Part shown: piece by piece, positions 24 through 7,331 of the stretch
How positions within the stretch are numbered: position 1 is the stretch's first letter
Layout of the letters: every line of letters begins with the position of its first letter
Source: a virus
Lineage: Duplodnaviria > Heunggongvirae > Uroviricota > Caudoviricetes
IMG/VR virus record: IMGVR_UViG_2541047163_000022
DNA length: 8,081 bases
Direction: 5' to 3' (one strand)
Program-made: the position numbers and the translations under genes
Notes under the pieces: generated by a model
Seen by the model: the letters and a program-made list of their open reading frames with translations, nothing else
Told to the model about the DNA's origin: nothing
Databases searched by the model: none

Positions 24-578
24 TCAAAAAGCAATAACTTTTTTCTCTATACCAAAAGCCATAACCATTGGTTTGTACAAAATAAATTCTGCCACCTTTA
101 GCCAATGCTCAATGCGTCTTTCACAGGTTCTTAAACTCCATTCCGGATGTGCATCATTCAGCAATTCAGCCATTTTGCGCTTAGTCATCCCCCGCCCCAC
201 ATAACGCTGACTCAGAACATTGAGCAGCCCGGGATAACCTGCCAGTACTTCACCAATAACCCTGTCGATTATTAACGCCTCTGAATCGGTACAATGCACC
301 AGCCAGCTTTTTTGCTTGCCGTTGATCATATCCCGCAAAAAAGCCTCAAGTTTAGGTTTGTCCAGACCTGCTTTTTTCATCCTCCGGAGCGCCTCGTTAA
401 TTGCCGTTTTTGTCAGCTTTTTAGAGGTCAGCAACTGGTTGAACATATTTCCCGTCTTACCGCCGCCAATATACGACCAGCGCCCCCACATACGTAGTTT
501 CCCCTGAATCCAGACACTTTCCAGCGTGGTGAGACGAAGGTGCTCTCCGCTTTTTCCTGTGTTCGTTGGGTAAATCAT
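24..578 (-). CDS. Lambdoid-phage protein of uncertain function; it sits immediately 3' of the DUF1367/DUF1364-like pair, where Q-type late antiterminators usually lie, but the family is not confirmed
   Basis: ORF track 24..698 (224 aa). Preferred start is the internal ATG at 578 (MIYPTNTGKSG...), which overlaps the upstream gene's stop as ATGA (+ strand tcat at 575-578) and has AAGGA about 10 nt upstream. The 698 start would overlap the upstream gene by 124 bp. No motif I can assign with certainty. Confidence 0.5.
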   Translation of the reverse strand: MIYPTNTGKSGEHLRLTTLESVWIQGKLRMWGRWSYIGGGKTGNMFNQLLTSKKLTKTAINEALRRMKKAGLDKPKLEAFLRDMINGKQKSWLVHCTDSEALIIDRVIGEVLAGYPGLLNVLSQRYVGRGMTKRKMAELLNDAHPEWSLRTCERRIEHWLKVAEFILYKPMVMAFGIEKKVIAF

Positions 579-865
579 AAATAACCGTCCTTTCTCCAGA
601 TCTCTTGTGTGCGAAAAACACCTTCTGCATGCATCAGGCGCAATTCTTCTTTGGTGTAATCGCTGGTTTTTACTCTCCCGTCGATTAAATCGTGGCATGA
701 GTTACAGGCAATCGCTGCCTGCATATCGTGTGGCTTTATCGCTGTTCCGCACGTTCCCGCCAGCCTGTAATGCGCCAGCACAGAGGTTTCGGGATTGTGA
801 TTGCAGTAGCCAGGGATTCTGATCTGGCATATCTGGCCTTTAGCCGCTTTACGTAAATTCACCAT
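575..865 (-). CDS. Small Cys/His-rich prophage protein, DUF1364 (YbcO-like) type as I recall the family; putative zinc-binding nin-region protein
   Basis: 96-aa ORF with clustered Cys/His (GYCNHNPE, CGT, CNSCHD). Its start overlaps the stop of the upstream gene as TAATG (863-867 on the - strand), indicating translational coupling. Backbone-like GC. Confidence 0.65.
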   Translation of the reverse strand: MVNLRKAAKGQICQIRIPGYCNHNPETSVLAHYRLAGTCGTAIKPHDMQAAIACNSCHDLIDGRVKTSDYTKEELRLMHAEGVFRTQEIWRKDGYL

Positions 866-1464
866 TACGCAAACTCCAGTAGTTGTGCGGCCACATTTTC
901 AACTTCCTCCTGAGAGGAGAATTTACGGAACAGAATCCAGTTCCACAGCACATTCAGTACAGATTTATAAACCTGCTGAAACTCGACTTCGTCCATATTC
1001 GCAAAAGCGATGGATTTTGCCCGACGCCCACGGCTACCGTCCGGATAAATATGCTCGGTGTAAAATCCGGCCTGAATGGTTACCCACTCGCGGAAAGCCT
1101 CAAACGACTTTAGCAACGCCGTATCCCGGGTTCTACGAGTCGCAACGGTGTTAAGGTATTGCTCTGCGGCATCACTCAGGGCTGGCGTGTGTTCCCGACC
1201 AACTGATTCGCACAGGTAATCAACGAAACCAGACAGCAGTTCTCGTTCGCGAGGCGTGATCGCCCCACCGACCGGAGTCCAGTAATCGAATCCCAGTTGC
1301 AGGAGTTTGAAAAAACGCTTGTGGAATGCGTAGTTACGCACACGCTTAAAATCTGCGTGTATCCACTCACCTATTTTGATTTGATGCAGAAAATCGCAAC
1401 TCTCCGGCGTCGCCGGGAGAAGTAAACCAGAAGAAGTTTGTTTGACCAGTTGTATATGCGCCAT
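865..1464 (-). CDS. Conserved prophage protein, DUF1367-like (family recalled, not verified)
   Basis: 199-aa ORF; stop overlaps the start of the downstream Cys/His-rich gene (TAATG); GAGA-type Shine-Dalgarno upstream of the ATG at 1464. The 83-aa ORF 1367..1618 in another frame overlaps its N-terminus and is judged spurious. Confidence 0.65.
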   Translation of the reverse strand: MAHIQLVKQTSSGLLLPATPESCDFLHQIKIGEWIHADFKRVRNYAFHKRFFKLLQLGFDYWTPVGGAITPRERELLSGFVDYLCESVGREHTPALSDAAEQYLNTVATRRTRDTALLKSFEAFREWVTIQAGFYTEHIYPDGSRGRRAKSIAFANMDEVEFQQVYKSVLNVLWNWILFRKFSSQEEVENVAAQLLEFA

Positions 1465-1883
1465 TTCTCAATCTCTCGATGGCGCAGTGCAGCAGATGCC
1501 AGTTGTTCAAGCTAGCACGCAAATTGTAAACCAGAATGCCAGGAAAAAACAAAACCCGCCGAAGCTGGTTGTGTGCGGTTGCGTTGAAGTCTCCTAGCCA
1601 AAGAGTAGCGGTGACCACTCCCCGCCGATAATCTTAGTTGTTTAATTTCGTAAGCTAACTAGGCTAAAAGCTCTCTGTTGTCTGCCTGTTGTACAATTAA
1701 CAAAATGAACAACGAACTAGATATACCAACGCCAGAATGGTGCAACAAATCCCAAACAACACAGCAATGCAACAATAACATATGTTATTTTCCTCTCACG
1801 GGATTCAGTCCTGAATTCTCATAAAGCTAATCTTTTTTTAAAAACATACTGTTAGATCACATGCACTTTCTTTCTTAACATCG

Positions 1884-1911
1884 TTGACTTCGCATGCGAA
1901 GCGTTTAAAAT
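1884..1911 (+). promoter_or_regulatory. Sigma70-type promoter for the GHKL operon, with an embedded 14-bp perfect palindrome (candidate operator)
   Basis: TTGACT at 1884-1889, 16-nt spacer, TAAAAT at 1906-1911; predicted start about 1918, about 45 nt before the ATG at 1964. The perfect palindrome CTTCGCATGCGAAG at 1888-1901 spans the -35/spacer junction. Confidence 0.45.
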
Positions 1912-1963
1912 CAACAATTTGCACTTAAGGTATTTATTTTCCCAAACACATAGAGAGTAAATT

Positions 1964-3355
1964 ATGACTGAGAACACGACTCCAACAGCAGACTTTAGTC
2001 CTAGTAAAAGATTTTTTGTAAGTATGCTAACTCGAGATATCGACTTAAACGATGCCATACTTGATCTGCTTGATAACTGCGTCGATGGGGCTTTACGTAC
2101 AATAAAAGACACAAAAAAAACTTCAAAACCATATGAAGGATTTTATGCGAAACTTACGATTAATAAAGATGTCTTTATTATAGAAGACAATTGCGGAGGT
2201 ATCCCTAAAAGCTTCCGAGAATATGCTTTTAAAATGGGACGACCCCATCAAAAAGAAGAAGAAAATGAAGGCACCGTTGGCGTCTATGGTATTGGTATGA
2301 AAAGAGCCATTTTTAAAATGGGTAGAGATTGCTCAATACAATCGAATAATCCCGATGGCGCATTCACTGTAGATATAACACCTGATTGGATCGATGGTGA
2401 TGGTTGGAAAATACCGATGCACGAGAGTGACTATGATAACAAAAATCCAACAGGCACAACTATAGAGATAAAAAAACTCCATTCTAATGTGGCACAAAAA
2501 TTTAATGAGAGCACATATCTTACTGATCTCTTTTTACAGATAAAACACTCATTGTCATTTATTATTCAAAAAGGATTTAAAATAGAATTAAATGGAGTTG
2601 TTGTTGAACATAATCCGATTAACATCATAACTGATCATTCTAAAATAGAACCATACATATATAAAGCTAAAATAGACGATGTTGATATCGATTTAGTTGT
2701 TGGCTTCTATAAAAATTTAGAAGATGACAATGATGATGTTTTAGAAAAAAGGAGTTCTGATGATGCTGGATGGACTGTCATTTGCAATGACCGCGTTGTT
2801 CTATATTGTGATAAGACACATCTCACAGGTTGGGGCTTTGCTAATGTACCAAGGTTTCATACCCAATTTATAGCAATTTCTGGGGTTGTTCGCTTTACCA
2901 GTAAAAACCCAGAAAAATTACCAATAACAACAACGAAACGAGGTGTCGATCTTAGTTCTACATTGTACAATGATGTACGAAATAAAATGATTGAAGGGAT
3001 GATGCATTTTATTCGATTCACCAATCAGTGGAAAGGTGAGCATCTTGAAGAAGGGAAAAAATTACTTAAGTCAGCTCAGTCACATGAAGCTCAATCTTTA
3101 TTTGAAATTACCCCACAATCAACTCCAGAAGATAAAAAAAATAACTGGTCCAACCCTAATAGAAACAAAAATGAGTGGCGATATACACCTAAGCTGCCTA
3201 CCCCAGTAAAAAAAAGCTCTACTGTACGAATAATCTTCACCAGAGAGAAAGAAGATGTTAAAATTTTATCTAAATATTTCTTTGGACATGAAGATGCTAG
3301 CGCTTCTGATGTGGGGATGCAATGCTTTGATACGGTGATTGAAGAGGTGAAGTGA
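1964..3355 (+). CDS. GHKL-superfamily (Bergerat-fold) ATPase with N-terminal ATPase domain, MORC/MutL/GyrB-like arrangement; function in this context unknown
   Basis: 463 aa. Motif I D34-LLD-N38-CVDGA (E/DxxxNxxD N-box; codons checked at 2063-2092). Motif II IEDNCGGIP at residues 74-81 (compare GyrB-type DNGRGIP). Motif III G106-VY-G109-I-G111 (GxxGxG). ATG at 1964 preceded by an AGAGAG weak Shine-Dalgarno. Low GC. The stop TGA at 3353-3355 overlaps the next gene's start. Confidence 0.85.
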   Translation: MTENTTPTADFSPSKRFFVSMLTRDIDLNDAILDLLDNCVDGALRTIKDTKKTSKPYEGFYAKLTINKDVFIIEDNCGGIPKSFREYAFKMGRPHQKEEENEGTVGVYGIGMKRAIFKMGRDCSIQSNNPDGAFTVDITPDWIDGDGWKIPMHESDYDNKNPTGTTIEIKKLHSNVAQKFNESTYLTDLFLQIKHSLSFIIQKGFKIELNGVVVEHNPINIITDHSKIEPYIYKAKIDDVDIDLVVGFYKNLEDDNDDVLEKRSSDDAGWTVICNDRVVLYCDKTHLTGWGFANVPRFHTQFIAISGVVRFTSKNPEKLPITTTKRGVDLSSTLYNDVRNKMIEGMMHFIRFTNQWKGEHLEEGKKLLKSAQSHEAQSLFEITPQSTPEDKKNNWSNPNRNKNEWRYTPKLPTPVKKSSTVRIIFTREKEDVKILSKYFFGHEDASASDVGMQCFDTVIEEVK

Positions 3356-4344
3356 TGTCTGGACAATACATTCCCTATCACTTAAGGCATAATAAGTCTA
3401 TTGATAGAGAGATTTTTCTCGAAAGCCTAAACCTCTTAAGCAAAAGACTAAATATTCAAGAATATACATATATAGGTTTTGGTGGTCCGATGCTTGAAGA
3501 TTTTAGAATCATGCATAATCGTATCGCTCTTTCTGATATGATTTCTCTCGAAGAACAAGAGTCTACTCACATCAGACAAAAATATAATTTGCCTTATAAT
3601 TGTATTGATTGTAAGCTAATATCAGCTCATGACTTTATTCTTGATTATAGTTTTTCTAAACCATCAATAACATGGTTAGACTATGCCTCCCCGAAAAAAA
3701 TACAAACGGATCTAGATGATATACACTTACTAAGTACTAAAGTAAGCTCTTTTGATATTTTGAAGGTCACCTTCCCCATAAATCCTAGTTCTTATTACCA
3801 ACGTAGAGTTGGAGAAAGTTTAGATATTTTTAAAGAAGCTTTTATTAATTCATTAAAATCATTGCTTGGGAAAAAGTATCTTGATTTTAATCTTCAGATA
3901 TCAAATGCAGATCTTTCAGATCGTAAGATTAAAGCTCTTTTAATACGAATTATTACAAACGCTTTTAGATCAGCAATAGAACGTGGTCTTTCAGGACGTA
4001 AGGATAAGATTCAGTATTACCCATTATCCTTAAATCAATATAATGATGGCAGTCATACCATGTTGACAATATCAGGTTTTTTCTCCTCAGAACAAGAATA
4101 TATAGAGTTATCTAAGGCATGCGACCTTTCTAACTGGCAATTTTATTCAACAAATTGGGAAGACGTGCAAGAAATAGCAATACCAACACTAACAATTAAA
4201 GAAAAGATAAATTTAGATAGTAAACTGCCTGATAAAGAAGCATATCAGGCAGCCGCTGAAGAGTTCTCTTTAAACGAAAATGAACGGGATAACTATTATA
4301 AATACTATAGGTTATACCCTAACTTCCAAAGAATTATGGTTTAA
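3352..4344 (+). CDS. Hypothetical protein, translationally coupled partner of the GHKL ATPase; no recognisable catalytic motif (candidate effector or specificity subunit)
   Basis: 330-aa ORF. GTG at 3352 and ATG at 3355 both overlap the upstream stop (GTGATG); GAGGTGA Shine-Dalgarno at 3343-3349 favours the ATG at 3355. I found no PD-(D/E)xK, HNH, HEPN or Walker motif by eye. Same low GC as the upstream gene. Confidence 0.7.
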   Translation: MMSGQYIPYHLRHNKSIDREIFLESLNLLSKRLNIQEYTYIGFGGPMLEDFRIMHNRIALSDMISLEEQESTHIRQKYNLPYNCIDCKLISAHDFILDYSFSKPSITWLDYASPKKIQTDLDDIHLLSTKVSSFDILKVTFPINPSSYYQRRVGESLDIFKEAFINSLKSLLGKKYLDFNLQISNADLSDRKIKALLIRIITNAFRSAIERGLSGRKDKIQYYPLSLNQYNDGSHTMLTISGFFSSEQEYIELSKACDLSNWQFYSTNWEDVQEIAIPTLTIKEKINLDSKLPDKEAYQAAAEEFSLNENERDNYYKYYRLYPNFQRIMV

Positions 4345-5463
4345 ATATTCGGGCTGTACTCTTTTATTTAATAAATTGTACAGCCCCTTTAATATATATT
4401 CAGCAACTATTGGTGACACGCTATTTCCTATTTGTCTGAAACTATGCCATTTAGTTACATGAAAGCGAAACCAATCAGGGAAGCCTTGTAATCTAGCAGC
4501 TTCTCTTGGTGTAATCACTCTTGGATGATAAGGGTGGATCGGCCTGACGGCTTGAAAGCTTCCTTTATCTCTAGCGGTTCCCGCCCTTAAAGTCGGGCAA
4601 AAACCATTTGGATCTAATCTTGTAGATCTTGAAATTTTATCAGTTTCCCCAAAAGATAAGGAAGCATAACGCTCTTGGACGATTTTGCTATGTAATGTTC
4701 CGGTACATCCAGATATGATATTATTTTTTAACTTAGCGATCGATTCTGTATCACCAACATTCCGAGGGATCTGCCCCCATAATTTTTCATAAAATCCCCC
4801 TTTTCGATCTTTTTTAATTGTTCGCCAACTCTCAGAGTCTGATTGCCAATTGGCATCGATAATATCTGGTAATCCATACAAAGCATCTTTTACAGTAACC
4901 GGATCAATCATTTTAGGCATAAATACTTCATCTGAAATATCAAGCTTCAATGATTTTTTTACACCGATAAAAAAATATCTAGTTCGAATAGTTGGAGCAC
5001 CATAATCAGATGCTTTTACCTTGATGGGATCAAGAATATCATAATCACCGCTAACCAAATTAAATGCTTTATTTCTAATGCCAGAATATTTCTCTTGCAT
5101 AATACCTGGAACATTTTCTGCCAAAAAGAATAATGGCTGTAATTCTGATACTAAACGGTAGAAATGCATGTAAAGCTGATTCCTGCTATCATCAGGATTC
5201 CCCTTGCCTATTGAACTAAATCCTTGGCACGGAGGACCGCCAATAATACCATCTATGGGCATATCGTTTTTAAAAAAACCCTTAATTATTTCTGCATTTA
5301 GTAAAGAAACATCTTCTTGGACGTGCAAACTTCTTGGAAAATTAATTGCGTGAGTATTAATAGCATGTTGATCAATTTCAACTGCCATTTTAACATCAAA
5401 TCCAGCACGTGCAGCACCAAGACTTAGACCTCCAACGCCAGAAAACAAATCTATTACATTCAT
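4312..5463 (-). CDS. DNA (cytosine-5)-methyltransferase (Dcm/M.HhaI-type C5-MTase), full length, non-permuted
   Basis: 383 aa. Motif I FSGVGG (residues 7-12); motif IV GGPPCQGFS with catalytic Cys79 (TGC, rc of gca at 5227-5229); motif VI FFLAENVPG (E116-N117-V118); motif VIII-like PTIRTRYFFIGV; motif IX REAARLQGFPDWFRF; motif X GNSVSPIVAEYI. Variable region between VIII and IX about 150 aa. ATG at 5463. Confidence 0.92.
   Translation of the reverse strand: MNVIDLFSGVGGLSLGAARAGFDVKMAVEIDQHAINTHAINFPRSLHVQEDVSLLNAEIIKGFFKNDMPIDGIIGGPPCQGFSSIGKGNPDDSRNQLYMHFYRLVSELQPLFFLAENVPGIMQEKYSGIRNKAFNLVSGDYDILDPIKVKASDYGAPTIRTRYFFIGVKKSLKLDISDEVFMPKMIDPVTVKDALYGLPDIIDANWQSDSESWRTIKKDRKGGFYEKLWGQIPRNVGDTESIAKLKNNIISGCTGTLHSKIVQERYASLSFGETDKISRSTRLDPNGFCPTLRAGTARDKGSFQAVRPIHPYHPRVITPREAARLQGFPDWFRFHVTKWHSFRQIGNSVSPIVAEYILKGLYNLLNKRVQPEYLNHNSLEVRV
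4351..4386 (+). terminator. Stem-loop immediately 3' of the GHKL operon (possible terminator or RNA-stability element), embedded in the 3' coding end of the convergent methyltransferase
   Basis: GGGCTGTAC (4351-4359) and GTACAGCCC (4378-4386) form a 9-bp perfect inverted repeat around an 18-nt AT-rich loop, followed by CCCTTTAATATATATT. It begins 7 nt after the TAA at 4342-4344. The loop is long for a canonical intrinsic terminator. Confidence 0.3.
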
Positions 5464-5495
5464 ATAGTTGCAACGTCTCTTATTAGTTTCTATGT

Positions 5496-5525
5496 ATTAT
5501 AACACAACTGTTCTTGATGTTTTAA
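5496..5525 (-). promoter_or_regulatory. Sigma70-type promoter with extended -10 for the methyltransferase
   Basis: - strand reads TTAAAA (5525-5520), 18-nt spacer, TGTTATAAT (5504-5496), i.e. TGn plus a consensus TATAAT. Predicted start about 5489, about 26 nt before the ATG at 5463. Confidence 0.45.
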
Positions 5526-5725
5526 CCCCATAAGATAACCTCATAAAGGCTATCCCTTGAAAATACCGGATCGCATAAATTTAATCTTTCAAAACTACTT
5601 GTCTATTAATCGAGCAATTTAAGGTTGTTTTAGTCATGTCGATACCGACATAGTTAACTAAACCCATTTCATCGTCCAACAAATGGGGGTAATACACTTT
5701 GATTTATAGTCGGGTGGGTTTTTCT

Positions 5726-5761
5726 CTATCTGCCTTTGGTGTTCATGCCCAAGGCAGATAG
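5726..5761. repeat. Near-perfect 12-13 bp inverted repeat (hairpin or protein-binding palindrome) near the right edge of the islet
   Basis: Left arm TATCTGCCTTTGG at 5727-5739, right arm CCAAGGCAGATA at 5749-5760, 9-nt loop, one bulged T, plus a closing C5726-G5761 pair. No U-run follows on either strand, so it is not a canonical intrinsic terminator. Confidence 0.5.
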
Positions 5762-5814
5762 CCTCAAGCACCCGCAGCAATTCTACTTAACTATCCTTTT
5801 CCCGCAAATCGTTT

Positions 5815-5898
5815 TTATCCCCAGCGGCAAATCGAATACACCACCAGCGCCACCGCCATCGCAATTCCTACCGTTGTGAATGCTTCAGGCCAGGTCAT
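5815..5898 (-). CDS. Possible small hydrophobic peptide (27 aa) coupled to the upstream DUF551-like gene; alternatively the remnant of a gene truncated by the islet insertion
   Basis: Hand translation of the - strand gives MTWPEAFTTVGIAMAVALVVYSICRWG then TAA. Its ATG (5898..5896) overlaps the upstream TGA (5897..5895) as ATGA. Backbone-like GC. Too short for the ORF track. Confidence 0.2.
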   Translation of the reverse strand: MTWPEAFTTVGIAMAVALVVYSICRWG

Positions 5899-6452
5899 TG
5901 ATTCACCTCCTGCGGCGGTTCTGGTAGCGACATCCAGTGGGTTGCTTGCCTAAGATCATTACCCGGACTAACTGCTATACCTCCGCGCCGGAACGTGCCT
6001 CCGAGATAGCGTGCGGAATATATTAATGGCCCAGCCTCGCTATCGATATTCATCGAAATAAGCACGTTCTGGCTCTTTTCAGGCATTCGCTCAGTACAGC
6101 TTATCCAGCCATCCAGAGTTATCGGAGATCTGGTTGACGTTTCCGAGATTTCCCGAAAATTGTTGGTTGACGAATTCTTATTTTCCCGAAAGTTTCCGGC
6201 CTGAAGCATGGCGACGCGGCAGGCGTTCCAGCCATCAGCATATGTTTTAGTTACACCGTCGAGATGGCAGGTAAGCAAATCCATTTCATCAGGCACTACC
6301 ATTGCTATCGGCTCTGCTTCCAGTGATGCCAGCGCGATACGAAACACATTAGCCAGCAGGCTGTCTGAAGACTTGTTATCGTGCGCCGAGTCGCTCAGGA
6401 AGCCTGTGATGTATGATTTAATCTCCGCGCGTTCTCTGGTAATAGTGCTCAT
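5895..6452 (-). CDS. Prophage protein with a C-terminal DUF551-like domain (family recalled from the ...HWMSLPEPP C-terminal motif)
   Basis: 185-aa ORF; ATG at 6452 with AAGGAAAA about 8 nt upstream; C-terminus ...ATHWMSLPEPPQEVNQ. Contains an in-frame 33-bp imperfect tandem duplication (peptides NFRENKNSSTN / NFREISETSTR). Confidence 0.7.
   Translation of the reverse strand: MSTITRERAEIKSYITGFLSDSAHDNKSSDSLLANVFRIALASLEAEPIAMVVPDEMDLLTCHLDGVTKTYADGWNACRVAMLQAGNFRENKNSSTNNFREISETSTRSPITLDGWISCTERMPEKSQNVLISMNIDSEAGPLIYSARYLGGTFRRGGIAVSPGNDLRQATHWMSLPEPPQEVNQ
6131..6196. repeat. Two imperfect 33-bp tandem copies inside the DUF551-like coding sequence (in-frame 11-codon duplication)
   Basis: TGGTTGACG occurs at 6131-6139 and 6164-6172; TTTCCCGAAA occurs at 6150-6159 and 6182-6191. 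Both pairs are 32-33 nt apart; roughly 70-75% identity between copies by hand alignment. Confidence 0.5.
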
Positions 6453-6799: not shown

Positions 6800-7111
6800 T
6801 TATGCTTCAGCCTTATTTCGCAACCAGACACAAACCGGGCCATCTTCCGTATCATGAATGGAACCAATAAACCAGCCATCGCCCTCTGGTCGTTCCGGTT
6901 CCCATGCAGAAATATCAGCATCACACGCATCAAGGTCAGCACATCCTTCATCTCTGAAGCAGAGGACGTATTGAAGATTATTTTCCTCCATCCAGGCGTT
7001 AAACTCTTCCGTTGAAATATATTCCCGACCATCACAGAATTTTTCATATTCAGGATGTGTCCAGTAGCCATATCCGTCACGAACTACCGGCATTTCTTTA
7101 ATTTCACTCAC
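6800..7111 (-). CDS. Highly acidic, Cys-rich small phage protein (about 25 Asp/Glu versus 8 Lys/Arg in 103 aa by hand count); function unknown
   Basis: The ORF starts with GTG at 7111..7109 (the track displays M), preceded by a strong AGGAGG about 7 nt upstream (rc of 7112-7125). It overlaps the upstream gene's stop by 8 nt. Confidence 0.65.
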   Translation of the reverse strand: MSEIKEMPVVRDGYGYWTHPEYEKFCDGREYISTEEFNAWMEENNLQYVLCFRDEGCADLDACDADISAWEPERPEGDGWFIGSIHDTEDGPVCVWLRNKAEA

Positions 7112-7331
7112 TGTTAACCTCCTGCAACGCTACACGATACGCCTTCTTTATCCACGCCTTACTGCCATATAATTTCGTCTTCATAATAAACACACCTGCA
7201 CGACTCGCCGATATCCCCGGACAGGTTAACAGCACAGCATCCACCACACGGTTATGCTTCCGAAACTCCATTACAGTACTGCTGATAACCACCTGCCCCA
7301 CCGGGCCGTAATCCTGATACAGGATTTTCAC
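7104..7331 (-). CDS. Hypothetical small phage protein
   Basis: 75-aa ORF with a GTG start at 7331..7329 overlapping the upstream stop (GTGA), and AGGAGGG about 9 nt upstream. Part of the coupled - strand chain. Confidence 0.55.
   Translation of the reverse strand: MKILYQDYGPVGQVVISSTVMEFRKHNRVVDAVLLTCPGISASRAGVFIMKTKLYGSKAWIKKAYRVALQEVNSE

Follow-up and report, generated by a model that had tools for sequence, protein, structure and literature searches.

The PF20553 gene and its two neighbours

We analysed an 8,081-nt stretch of DNA from a virus of the class Caudoviricetes (IMG/VR record IMGVR_UViG_2541047163_000022; this whole stretch is called the window below), and in it a gene of the Pfam family PF20553 that directly follows the gene of a MORC-like GHKL ATPase and converges on that of a C5 DNA cytosine methyltransferase, Dcm (Table 1). 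The open reading frame (ORF) occupies 3352-4344 on the + strand and would encode 330 aa if read from GTG 3352. Direct reading of the gene junction, GAGGTGAAGTGATG, places GAGGTGA at 3344-3350, the GTG at 3352 and, in frame with it, an ATG at 3355, and the stop codon of the ATPase ORF (TGA, 3353-3355) overlaps the start of the PF20553 gene. The ATG is more likely to be the start than the GTG, with a product of 329 aa, because it lies at a 5-nt spacer from the Shine-Dalgarno-like sequence, gives the N-terminus MSGQY (homologues begin MSGG) and is the start chosen in RefSeq, where WP_000016656.1 has 329 aa from ATG 3355 and is 100% identical to the window protein. With this start the junction is TGATG, a 1-nt overlap, and the GTG start also overlaps the ATPase stop. 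A first-pass annotation, made from the letters of this DNA without database searches, had described an ORF at these positions coupled to the ATPase by a stop/start overlap plus GAGGTGA, all of which can be read in the sequence. It had also called the gene low in GC, and this holds: GC is 31.8% in the PF20553 gene, 35-37% in its two neighbours and 48-49% in the flanking prophage genes, and GC at third codon positions is ~0.25 in the three-gene block as against ~0.52 in the flanks.

The ATPase matches Pfam HATPase_c_3 (E = 2.9e-9). Its N, G1 and G2 boxes are invariant and its ATP site is intact, and the invariant lysine of a TTTKRG motif is read as the S5 transducer lysine. Its structural model is closest to MORC3, and nearer to MORC than to MutL. 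The features of MORC and paraMORC ATPases associated with restriction-modification (R-M) were thus found together, namely the GHKL boxes, the putative S5 lysine and mobile neighbourhoods with methylases and nucleases. The third gene product, Dcm, matches Pfam DNA_methylase (E = 2.6e-61) and TIGR00675 (dcm). PDB chain 3G7U is near-identical to it (E = 1e-254); a crystal structure of the cassette methylase thus exists. Promoter-like sites in the region are no commoner than in shuffled controls, and the two listed in Table 1 are positional hints only. No Rfam RNA family was found in the window.

Table 1. Coordinates of features in the window (position 1 is its first nucleotide)
Feature	Position	Strand	Basis or remark
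Low-GC three-gene cargo island, lambdoid prophage	1588..5715	.	between DUF1367 and DUF551 genes; approximate ends
Promoter-like site TTGACT, 16-nt spacer, TAAAAT	1884..1911	+	53 nt before ATPase start; consensus 10/12
MORC-like GHKL + S5 ATPase, 463 aa, RefSeq WP_000138556.1	1964..3355	+	
Shine-Dalgarno-like GAGGTGA	3344..3350	+	within ATPase gene 3' end, 5 nt before ATG 3355
PF20553 (Methyltransf_35) class-I methyltransferase-fold protein (predicted), 329 aa	3355..4344	+	Pfam, RefSeq, predicted fold
Overlap of convergent PF20553 and Dcm 3' ends, 33 bp	4312..4344	.	ORF coordinates
C5 DNA cytosine methyltransferase (Dcm), 383 aa, RefSeq WP_001100703.1	4312..5463	-	
Promoter-like site TTAAAA, 18-nt spacer, extended -10 TG-TATAAT	5496..5525	-	33 nt before Dcm start; 10/12 plus TG

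A methyltransferase fold and its conserved site

Pfam-A assigns residues 2-329 of the protein to PF20553 (Methyltransf_35, 'Putative O-methyltransferase') with E = 2e-89, at 300.4 bits for a cut-off of 27 and over positions 1-308 of the 309 in the model, and the same family was found in 57/57 homologues scanned. In PHROGs the protein falls in phrog_19983 (E = 1.7e-154), whose function is listed as unknown, and RefSeq uses the name 'O-methyltransferase' in all records listed among the 172 E. coli genomes that carry the whole island. An AlphaFold2 model built on 36 homologues (pLDDT, the predicted local distance difference test, 89.2; pTM, the predicted template modelling score, 0.87) has an alternating beta/alpha Rossmann-like core of seven strands with a C-terminal antiparallel beta6-beta7 hairpin. 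As predicted, this is the stand-alone class-I (Rossmann-type, seven-strand) fold of methyltransferases dependent on S-adenosylmethionine (SAM), and the model is a confident one. A Foldseek comparison with the PDB returned 249 matches at E <= 1e-3; the 50 listed are nearly all SAM methyltransferases, and the best match among those listed is Trm1 (E = 2e-6). Toprim-like and response-regulator-like readings of the protein were considered and rejected, both on the seven-strand sheet with its beta6-beta7 hairpin and on PF20553 being the only Pfam match.

The first-pass annotation had found no recognisable methyltransferase motif in the protein and had raised the possibility of an undescribed domain. 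Family match and class-I fold overturn the first statement, and the second does not stand for a full-length member of PF20553 that is also named in RefSeq: the domain is not new, belonging to a catalogued family whose function is only predicted. That the motifs escaped inspection by eye is understandable, since its divergence puts the protein beyond the reach of ordinary sequence searches. PDB searches at the sequence level, whether started from the protein itself or from a profile of 36 sequences, returned no methyltransferase and no other meaningful match, so that it is solely by fold comparison that the protein is linked to methyltransferases; nor did they find a solved structure of the family. 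Literature searches with the family names and RefSeq accessions found no publication on PF20553. When 1.84 billion representative proteins were searched with a profile, 2,126 clusters (50% identity) were recovered; in the best 150 of these every representative is a stand-alone protein, ~200-380 aa long, and no informative domain fusion was seen.

The nearest folds are RNA base methyltransferases of the RsmD, Trm1 and RlmI types (PDB 3p9n, 3axt, 2ift, 1wxw, 4dmg, 3c0k), with TlyA and fibrillarin lower in the fold lists. Identity to the fold neighbours is just 7-13%, and there is no sequence-level match to the RsmD, Trm1 and RlmI types. The PF20553 protein differs from these enzymes in carrying D-(Y/F)-x-x-P at motif IV where they have DPP(F/Y), and in two additions, an invariant N-terminal YHLRxNK...R and a C-terminal helical region of ~80 residues. 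We know of no constant pairing with a GHKL ATPase for enzymes of these types, such as is seen for PF20553.

To describe the predicted cofactor site we computed conservation over 79 PF20553 sequences from many phyla and assigned motif positions from the secondary structure of the model. A Gly-rich loop, G41-x-G43-G44-P45, follows beta1 (G41 92%, G43 96%, G44 86%), D49 is conserved at 99%, E66 at the end of beta2 likewise at 99%, and D109 at the end of beta4 is conserved at 100%, as is the Y/F110 that follows it. The cofactor-site features of class-I SAM methyltransferases, that is the Gly loop, the beta2 acid and the beta4 Asp, are thus all present. Given the 86-100% conservation of the Gly loop, E66 and D109, we infer that the protein has kept its ability to bind SAM. 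Further invariant polar residues are Y8, H9, R11, N13, K14, R18, R74, Y229, D231 and E283, a set that suggests a real active or binding site.

The catalytic signatures are less regular. Motif IV reads W-L-D-(Y/F)-x-x-P, in which the Asp and the aromatic residue of (D/N/S)-P-P-(Y/F/W) are kept and both prolines are missing. We therefore do not class the protein as a canonical amino-methyltransferase, though its nearest folds are of that kind. Two O-methyltransferase signatures were also compared. The 2'-O-ribose methyltransferases of the RrmJ/FtsJ type carry an invariant K-D-K-E catalytic tetrad, and O-methyltransferases of the COMT/CCoAOMT type a D...D-N metal triad after beta4 and beta5. Against K-D-K-E the family has K14 (100%), D109 (100%), a position 137 that is K in 58/79 and R in 20/79 sequences, and D231, not Glu, at the fourth site. 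Neither the tetrad nor the metal triad is cleanly present, and on these residues membership of the 2'-O or COMT-type enzymes leans negative.

Two accounts of the protein can be weighed at this point. The first takes the database name at its word: the protein would be a true O-methyltransferase whose substrate is a small molecule, a protein carboxylate or a ribose 2'-OH, with the GHKL protein as a kinase- or chaperone-like partner and the link to Dcm as incidental co-mobilisation. The name in Pfam and RefSeq speaks for it, as do TlyA and fibrillarin in the fold lists and a possible K14-D109-(K/R)137-D231 set that resembles the K-D-K-E tetrad. The label is a computational name, however, to which the structural neighbours give no support, since the nearest folds methylate nucleic-acid bases; the prefix 'O-' may therefore mislead, and we regard this account as improbable. 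In the second, the protein would be a pseudo-enzyme that transfers no methyl group and has kept its fold only to sense SAM, S-adenosylhomocysteine (or a nucleotide) or to serve as a scaffold in regulating the ATPase. In its favour, SAM is a restriction cofactor in type I and type III enzymes; apart from the cofactor-binding positions there are no canonical catalytic motifs, and the divergence from known methyltransferases defeats any sequence match to them. What counts against a pure sensor is the invariant polar set itself, which together with D109 clusters at the class-I substrate site and looks like an active site, and we give this account little credence.

Conservation of the pair and its genomic company

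We compared 80 loci taken from a pattern scan, with one genome per species. They span Cyanobacteria, several proteobacterial classes, Bacillota, Bacteroidota, Acidobacteriota, Verrucomicrobiota, Chloroflexota, Latescibacterota, Poribacteria, Planctomycetota and others. In 80/80 loci the PF20553 gene is directly preceded, on its own strand, by the gene of a homologue of the window ATPase (31-47% identity), and the commonest junction between the two genes is a 4-nt overlap. Among the 57 loci with complete trios, the pairwise identity matrices of ATPase and PF20553 protein are strongly correlated (r = 0.78, Mantel p = 0.001). The constant upstream position, the mostly 4-nt overlap and this correlation bear out the description of the protein in the first-pass annotation as the obligatory partner of a GHKL ATPase. 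Of the three proteins PF20553 evolves fastest, with a mean pairwise identity of 0.34 as compared with 0.45 for the ATPase and 0.46 for Dcm. In R-M systems, fast evolution is expected of the subunit that confers specificity or carries out restriction.

Dcm is the usual third member. A homologue was found in ~68/80 loci by tblastn and in 62 by ORF calls, and several of the remaining contigs are incomplete. It adjoins the pair in 51 loci, lying upstream and co-directional in 23, downstream and convergent in 22 and downstream and co-directional in 6. In several of the convergent loci (L041, L045, L047-L050 and L052) the tblastn match to Dcm runs up to, or into, the end of that to PF20553. Overlapping convergent gene ends occur in some type II R-M gene pairs. 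Vsr, recognised by its FVHGCFWH motif, is present in 21/80 loci and HNH endonuclease genes in 8/80 (HNH_5 in 5, HNH_2 in 3); examples of HNH genes that adjoin the module are at 9099-9827 in L064 and 4543-5361 in L046. Tyrosine-recombinase-like genes (cluster c4, judged by eye) were seen in 6 loci.

Some arrangements depart from this pattern. The Rhodoferax metagenome-assembled genome (MAG) L010 has two oppositely oriented ATPase-PF20553 pairs around a single Dcm (ATP+ OMT+ DCM- u+ OMT- ATP-). In L003, a gammaproteobacterial MAG, a 280-aa ORF at 9085-9927 with no Pfam match lies between PF20553 and Dcm and may encode something like a restriction endonuclease. In ~10 loci Dcm has beside it a further GHKL ATPase, longer (537-610 aa) than the one paired with PF20553, for instance at 9061-10824 in L013 and also in L012, L014, L017, L018, L022, L024, L030 and L034; HATPase_c_3 is the sole Pfam match of the one in L013. 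These ~10 loci resemble the neighbourhoods of MORC plus paraMORC1 described by Iyer et al. 2008 (PMC2292703).

In the window the three genes form an island of ~4.1 kb, which is present whole in 172/5426 complete E. coli genomes. The cassette is native to lambdoid prophages of E. coli O157:H7 (Shiga toxin-producing E. coli). In other E. coli prophages the same flanks (window ~1489-1587 and 5716-5792) are joined by ~0.5-1.2 kb, or 3.2 kb in one record, and this joining segment carries hokD or other Hok/Gef type I toxin genes. The slot between DUF1367 and DUF551 is thus an exchangeable cargo site, and the island is mobile. In one E. coli strain the same slot also holds KilA-N and DUF1971 genes. 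One flank carries DUF1367, YbcO and a DUF1133/Q-like antiterminator, the other DUF551, DUF4014 and DUF1627. The longest ORF of the antiterminator overlaps the YbcO gene by 124 nt (ORFs 24-698 and 575-865, both on the - strand), probably as an artefact of taking the longest ORF, because the RefSeq start is later (184 aa). Two small prophage ORFs on the - strand, at 6800-7111 (103 aa) and 7104-7331 (75 aa), have no Pfam match.

Phage carriage is not confined to lambdoid prophages. PfAC20 (PP058144.1; locus L082), a filamentous Pf-type Pseudomonas phage (inovirus), has an ATPase-PF20553-Dcm operon at 280-3711, at the left end of its genome, and a second short ORF annotated 'DNA cytosine methyltransferase' at 5438-6082. 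A PF20553 homologue was found in just one phage of the phage database, so the family is not common among sequenced phages. Taken together, Dcm, the MORC-like ATPase and the PF20553 protein form a conserved mobile trio linked to cytosine methylation. The defence context proposed in the first-pass annotation is accordingly supported as one of methylation or defence type, by the frequent Dcm, the Vsr and HNH neighbours and the prophage cargo slot.

These neighbourhoods also bear on a third account, in which the pair would be an accessory that limits damage by Dcm: a MutL-like ATPase and the PF20553 protein would aid very-short-patch repair of the T:G mismatches left by deamination of 5-methylcytosine, or would restrain Dcm. 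Vsr, however, is missing from most loci, the window included, and MORC, not MutL, is the nearer relative of the ATPase. What a methyltransferase fold would do in mismatch repair is not obvious, and phage cargo sites together with a patchy spread across phyla suggest conflict systems and not repair. We consider this account highly unlikely.

Possible roles of the PF20553 protein

We tentatively favour a reading in which the PF20553 protein is the substrate-engaging subunit, for recognition and/or as effector, of an R-M-like module with Dcm marking self. Dcm would mark the resident DNA, and the ATPase dimer would clamp DNA using ATP. The PF20553 protein would then contribute recognition and/or SAM-dependent effector chemistry on DNA that does not carry the Dcm mark; cleavage, if there is any, would come from accessory or host nucleases and from neither the ATPase nor the PF20553 protein. 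Its substrate or ligand is probably a nucleic acid, most likely DNA, because it folds near RNA base methyltransferases, because the ATPase resembles the DNA-clamping MORC and MutL and because the neighbours are Dcm, Vsr and HNH. The role of effector or target-recognition component, suggested in the first-pass annotation, appears plausible from the sequence comparisons, since PF20553 is the fastest-evolving of the three and since a nuclease domain is missing from it and from the ATPase alike.

Several observations weigh against this reading. With Pfam, PADLOC, NCBIfam and fold search we detected no nuclease or other effector domain in the PF20553 protein or the ATPase, the C-terminal 130 residues of the latter included, and a pair with no nuclease domain leaves classical restriction unexplained. 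A cognate nuclease, which defines classical R-M, was not found: HNH and Vsr occur in a minority of loci, and none is in the window. Neither protein matches a model of PADLOC-DB v2 or NCBIfam; in PADLOC-DB v2 Dcm alone does, and to the generic models MTase_II, DruM and DrmMII. Our literature searches found no description of the PF20553 family or of the trio. The family is mildly acidic (median pI 6.3 vs 9.3 for Dcm), which gives no support for strong stand-alone DNA binding; as a stand-in for DNA binding, isoelectric point proved uninformative to mildly negative. Dcm co-varies moderately with the ATPase and PF20553 (r = 0.38-0.46, Mantel p = 0.001, 57 trios), and shared descent of whole cassettes inflates all three correlations. 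In about 7 untruncated loci, several of them cyanobacterial, no Dcm lies within 8 kb of the pair; the genomes concerned are those of L002, L004, L005, L007, L008, L036 and L053. Among these, the Nostoc/Scytonema loci L002, L004 and L008 have the pair between membrane-protein genes (~700 and 527 aa), taken by eye to be NADH dehydrogenase subunits. Finally, the fold neighbours discriminate weakly between substrates. As a separate observation, a thioredoxin-like gene adjoins the ATPase-PF20553 pair in L002, L004 and L008.

A rival reading is that of a second modification enzyme. The PF20553 protein would then be an active DNA (or RNA) base methyltransferase, loaded or activated by the ATPase, that together with Dcm gives a double mark with no attack on foreign DNA, for the purpose of anti-restriction or of epigenetic regulation of phage or host DNA. 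The conservation of its SAM site is that of an active enzyme, base methyltransferases are its nearest neighbours in fold, no nuclease belongs to the system, the pair occurs with no Dcm in some genomes to no apparent harm, and temperate phages carry the cassette in cargo positions. A plain methylase, on the other hand, is not expected to need a co-evolving ATPase in 80/80 loci, and motif IV lacks the PP of amino-methyltransferases. Faster evolution than Dcm would be unusual for a housekeeping-type methylase, and the convergent overlap with Dcm resembles the regulation of an R gene versus an M gene. On balance we think a second modification enzyme unlikely.

The recognition or effector role that we favour has analogies in type III R-M (Mod/Res) and BREX (PglX), where the ATP-using partner requires a SAM-binding subunit of methyltransferase fold to recognise its DNA target. 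BREX, to our knowledge, also has no obvious nuclease. The PF20553 cassette differs from these in that their recognising methyltransferase is itself protective, whereas here there is a separate Dcm, and in that its ATPase is of the GHKL type and theirs are helicases or AAA+ proteins; no homology was detected (no PADLOC match). MutL acting with MutH or Vsr and a methyl mark is a further analogy for the cassette.

Closer relatives of the cassette are found among MORC-type modules. Iyer, Abhiman & Aravind (2008; PMC2292703) described predicted R-M operons in which paraMORC GHKL ATPases occur together with Dcm, Vsr and HNH, and with SF2 helicases and RE-fold, HNH or TIR nucleases as partners. The cassette shares with those MORC and paraMORC modules the GHKL+S5 architecture, intact ATP motifs, a C-terminal extension and mobile neighbourhoods with C5 methylases, Vsr and sometimes HNH nucleases. 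It differs in its methyltransferase-fold partner, of which the sections of PMC2292703 used here describe none. Bellieny-Rabelo et al. (2021) reported uncharacterised triplets of C5-MTase, HATPase_c_3/HEF_HK plus Response_reg_2 (PMC8011034). These triplets have in common with the cassette a C5 methylase, a GHKL protein related to paraMORC and, in tight linkage, a small partner of alpha/beta fold. Unlike them, the window ATPase has no HEF_HK match (nor does the longer GHKL ATPase of L013), and the partner is PF20553 and not PF19192.

One more account is a nuclease-free, MORC-based epigenetic immunity. Dcm would again mark self, and the PF20553 protein would license an ATPase clamp that compacts or silences incoming DNA: its SAM-bound fold would probe (flip) or methylate bases at unmarked sites and so load the MORC-like dimer. 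In a variant, the PF20553 protein would make, in an ATP-dependent manner, a DNA methyl mark that is new to R-M systems. We consider this account quite unlikely; if true, the cassette would be a bacterial counterpart, and a possible ancestor, of the eukaryotic MORC silencing linked to cytosine methylation.

Whatever its mode of action, the pair is very widespread: clustering at 50% identity gives ~2,100 groups, and the carriers include many phyla and two kinds of temperate phage. It joins a MORC-like ATPase to a methyltransferase-fold protein, usually with a C5 methylase, in a combination for which we found no nuclease, no PADLOC-DB entry and no publication. The roots of MORC function in prokaryotes, and its link to cytosine methylation, have been under discussion since 2008, and experimental understanding of them is still poor, as the 2021 paper (PMC8011034) also states. 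The cassette described here is directly testable, because it is compact (~4.1 kb, three genes), is native to prophages of E. coli O157:H7 and includes a methylase whose structure, 3G7U, already exists.

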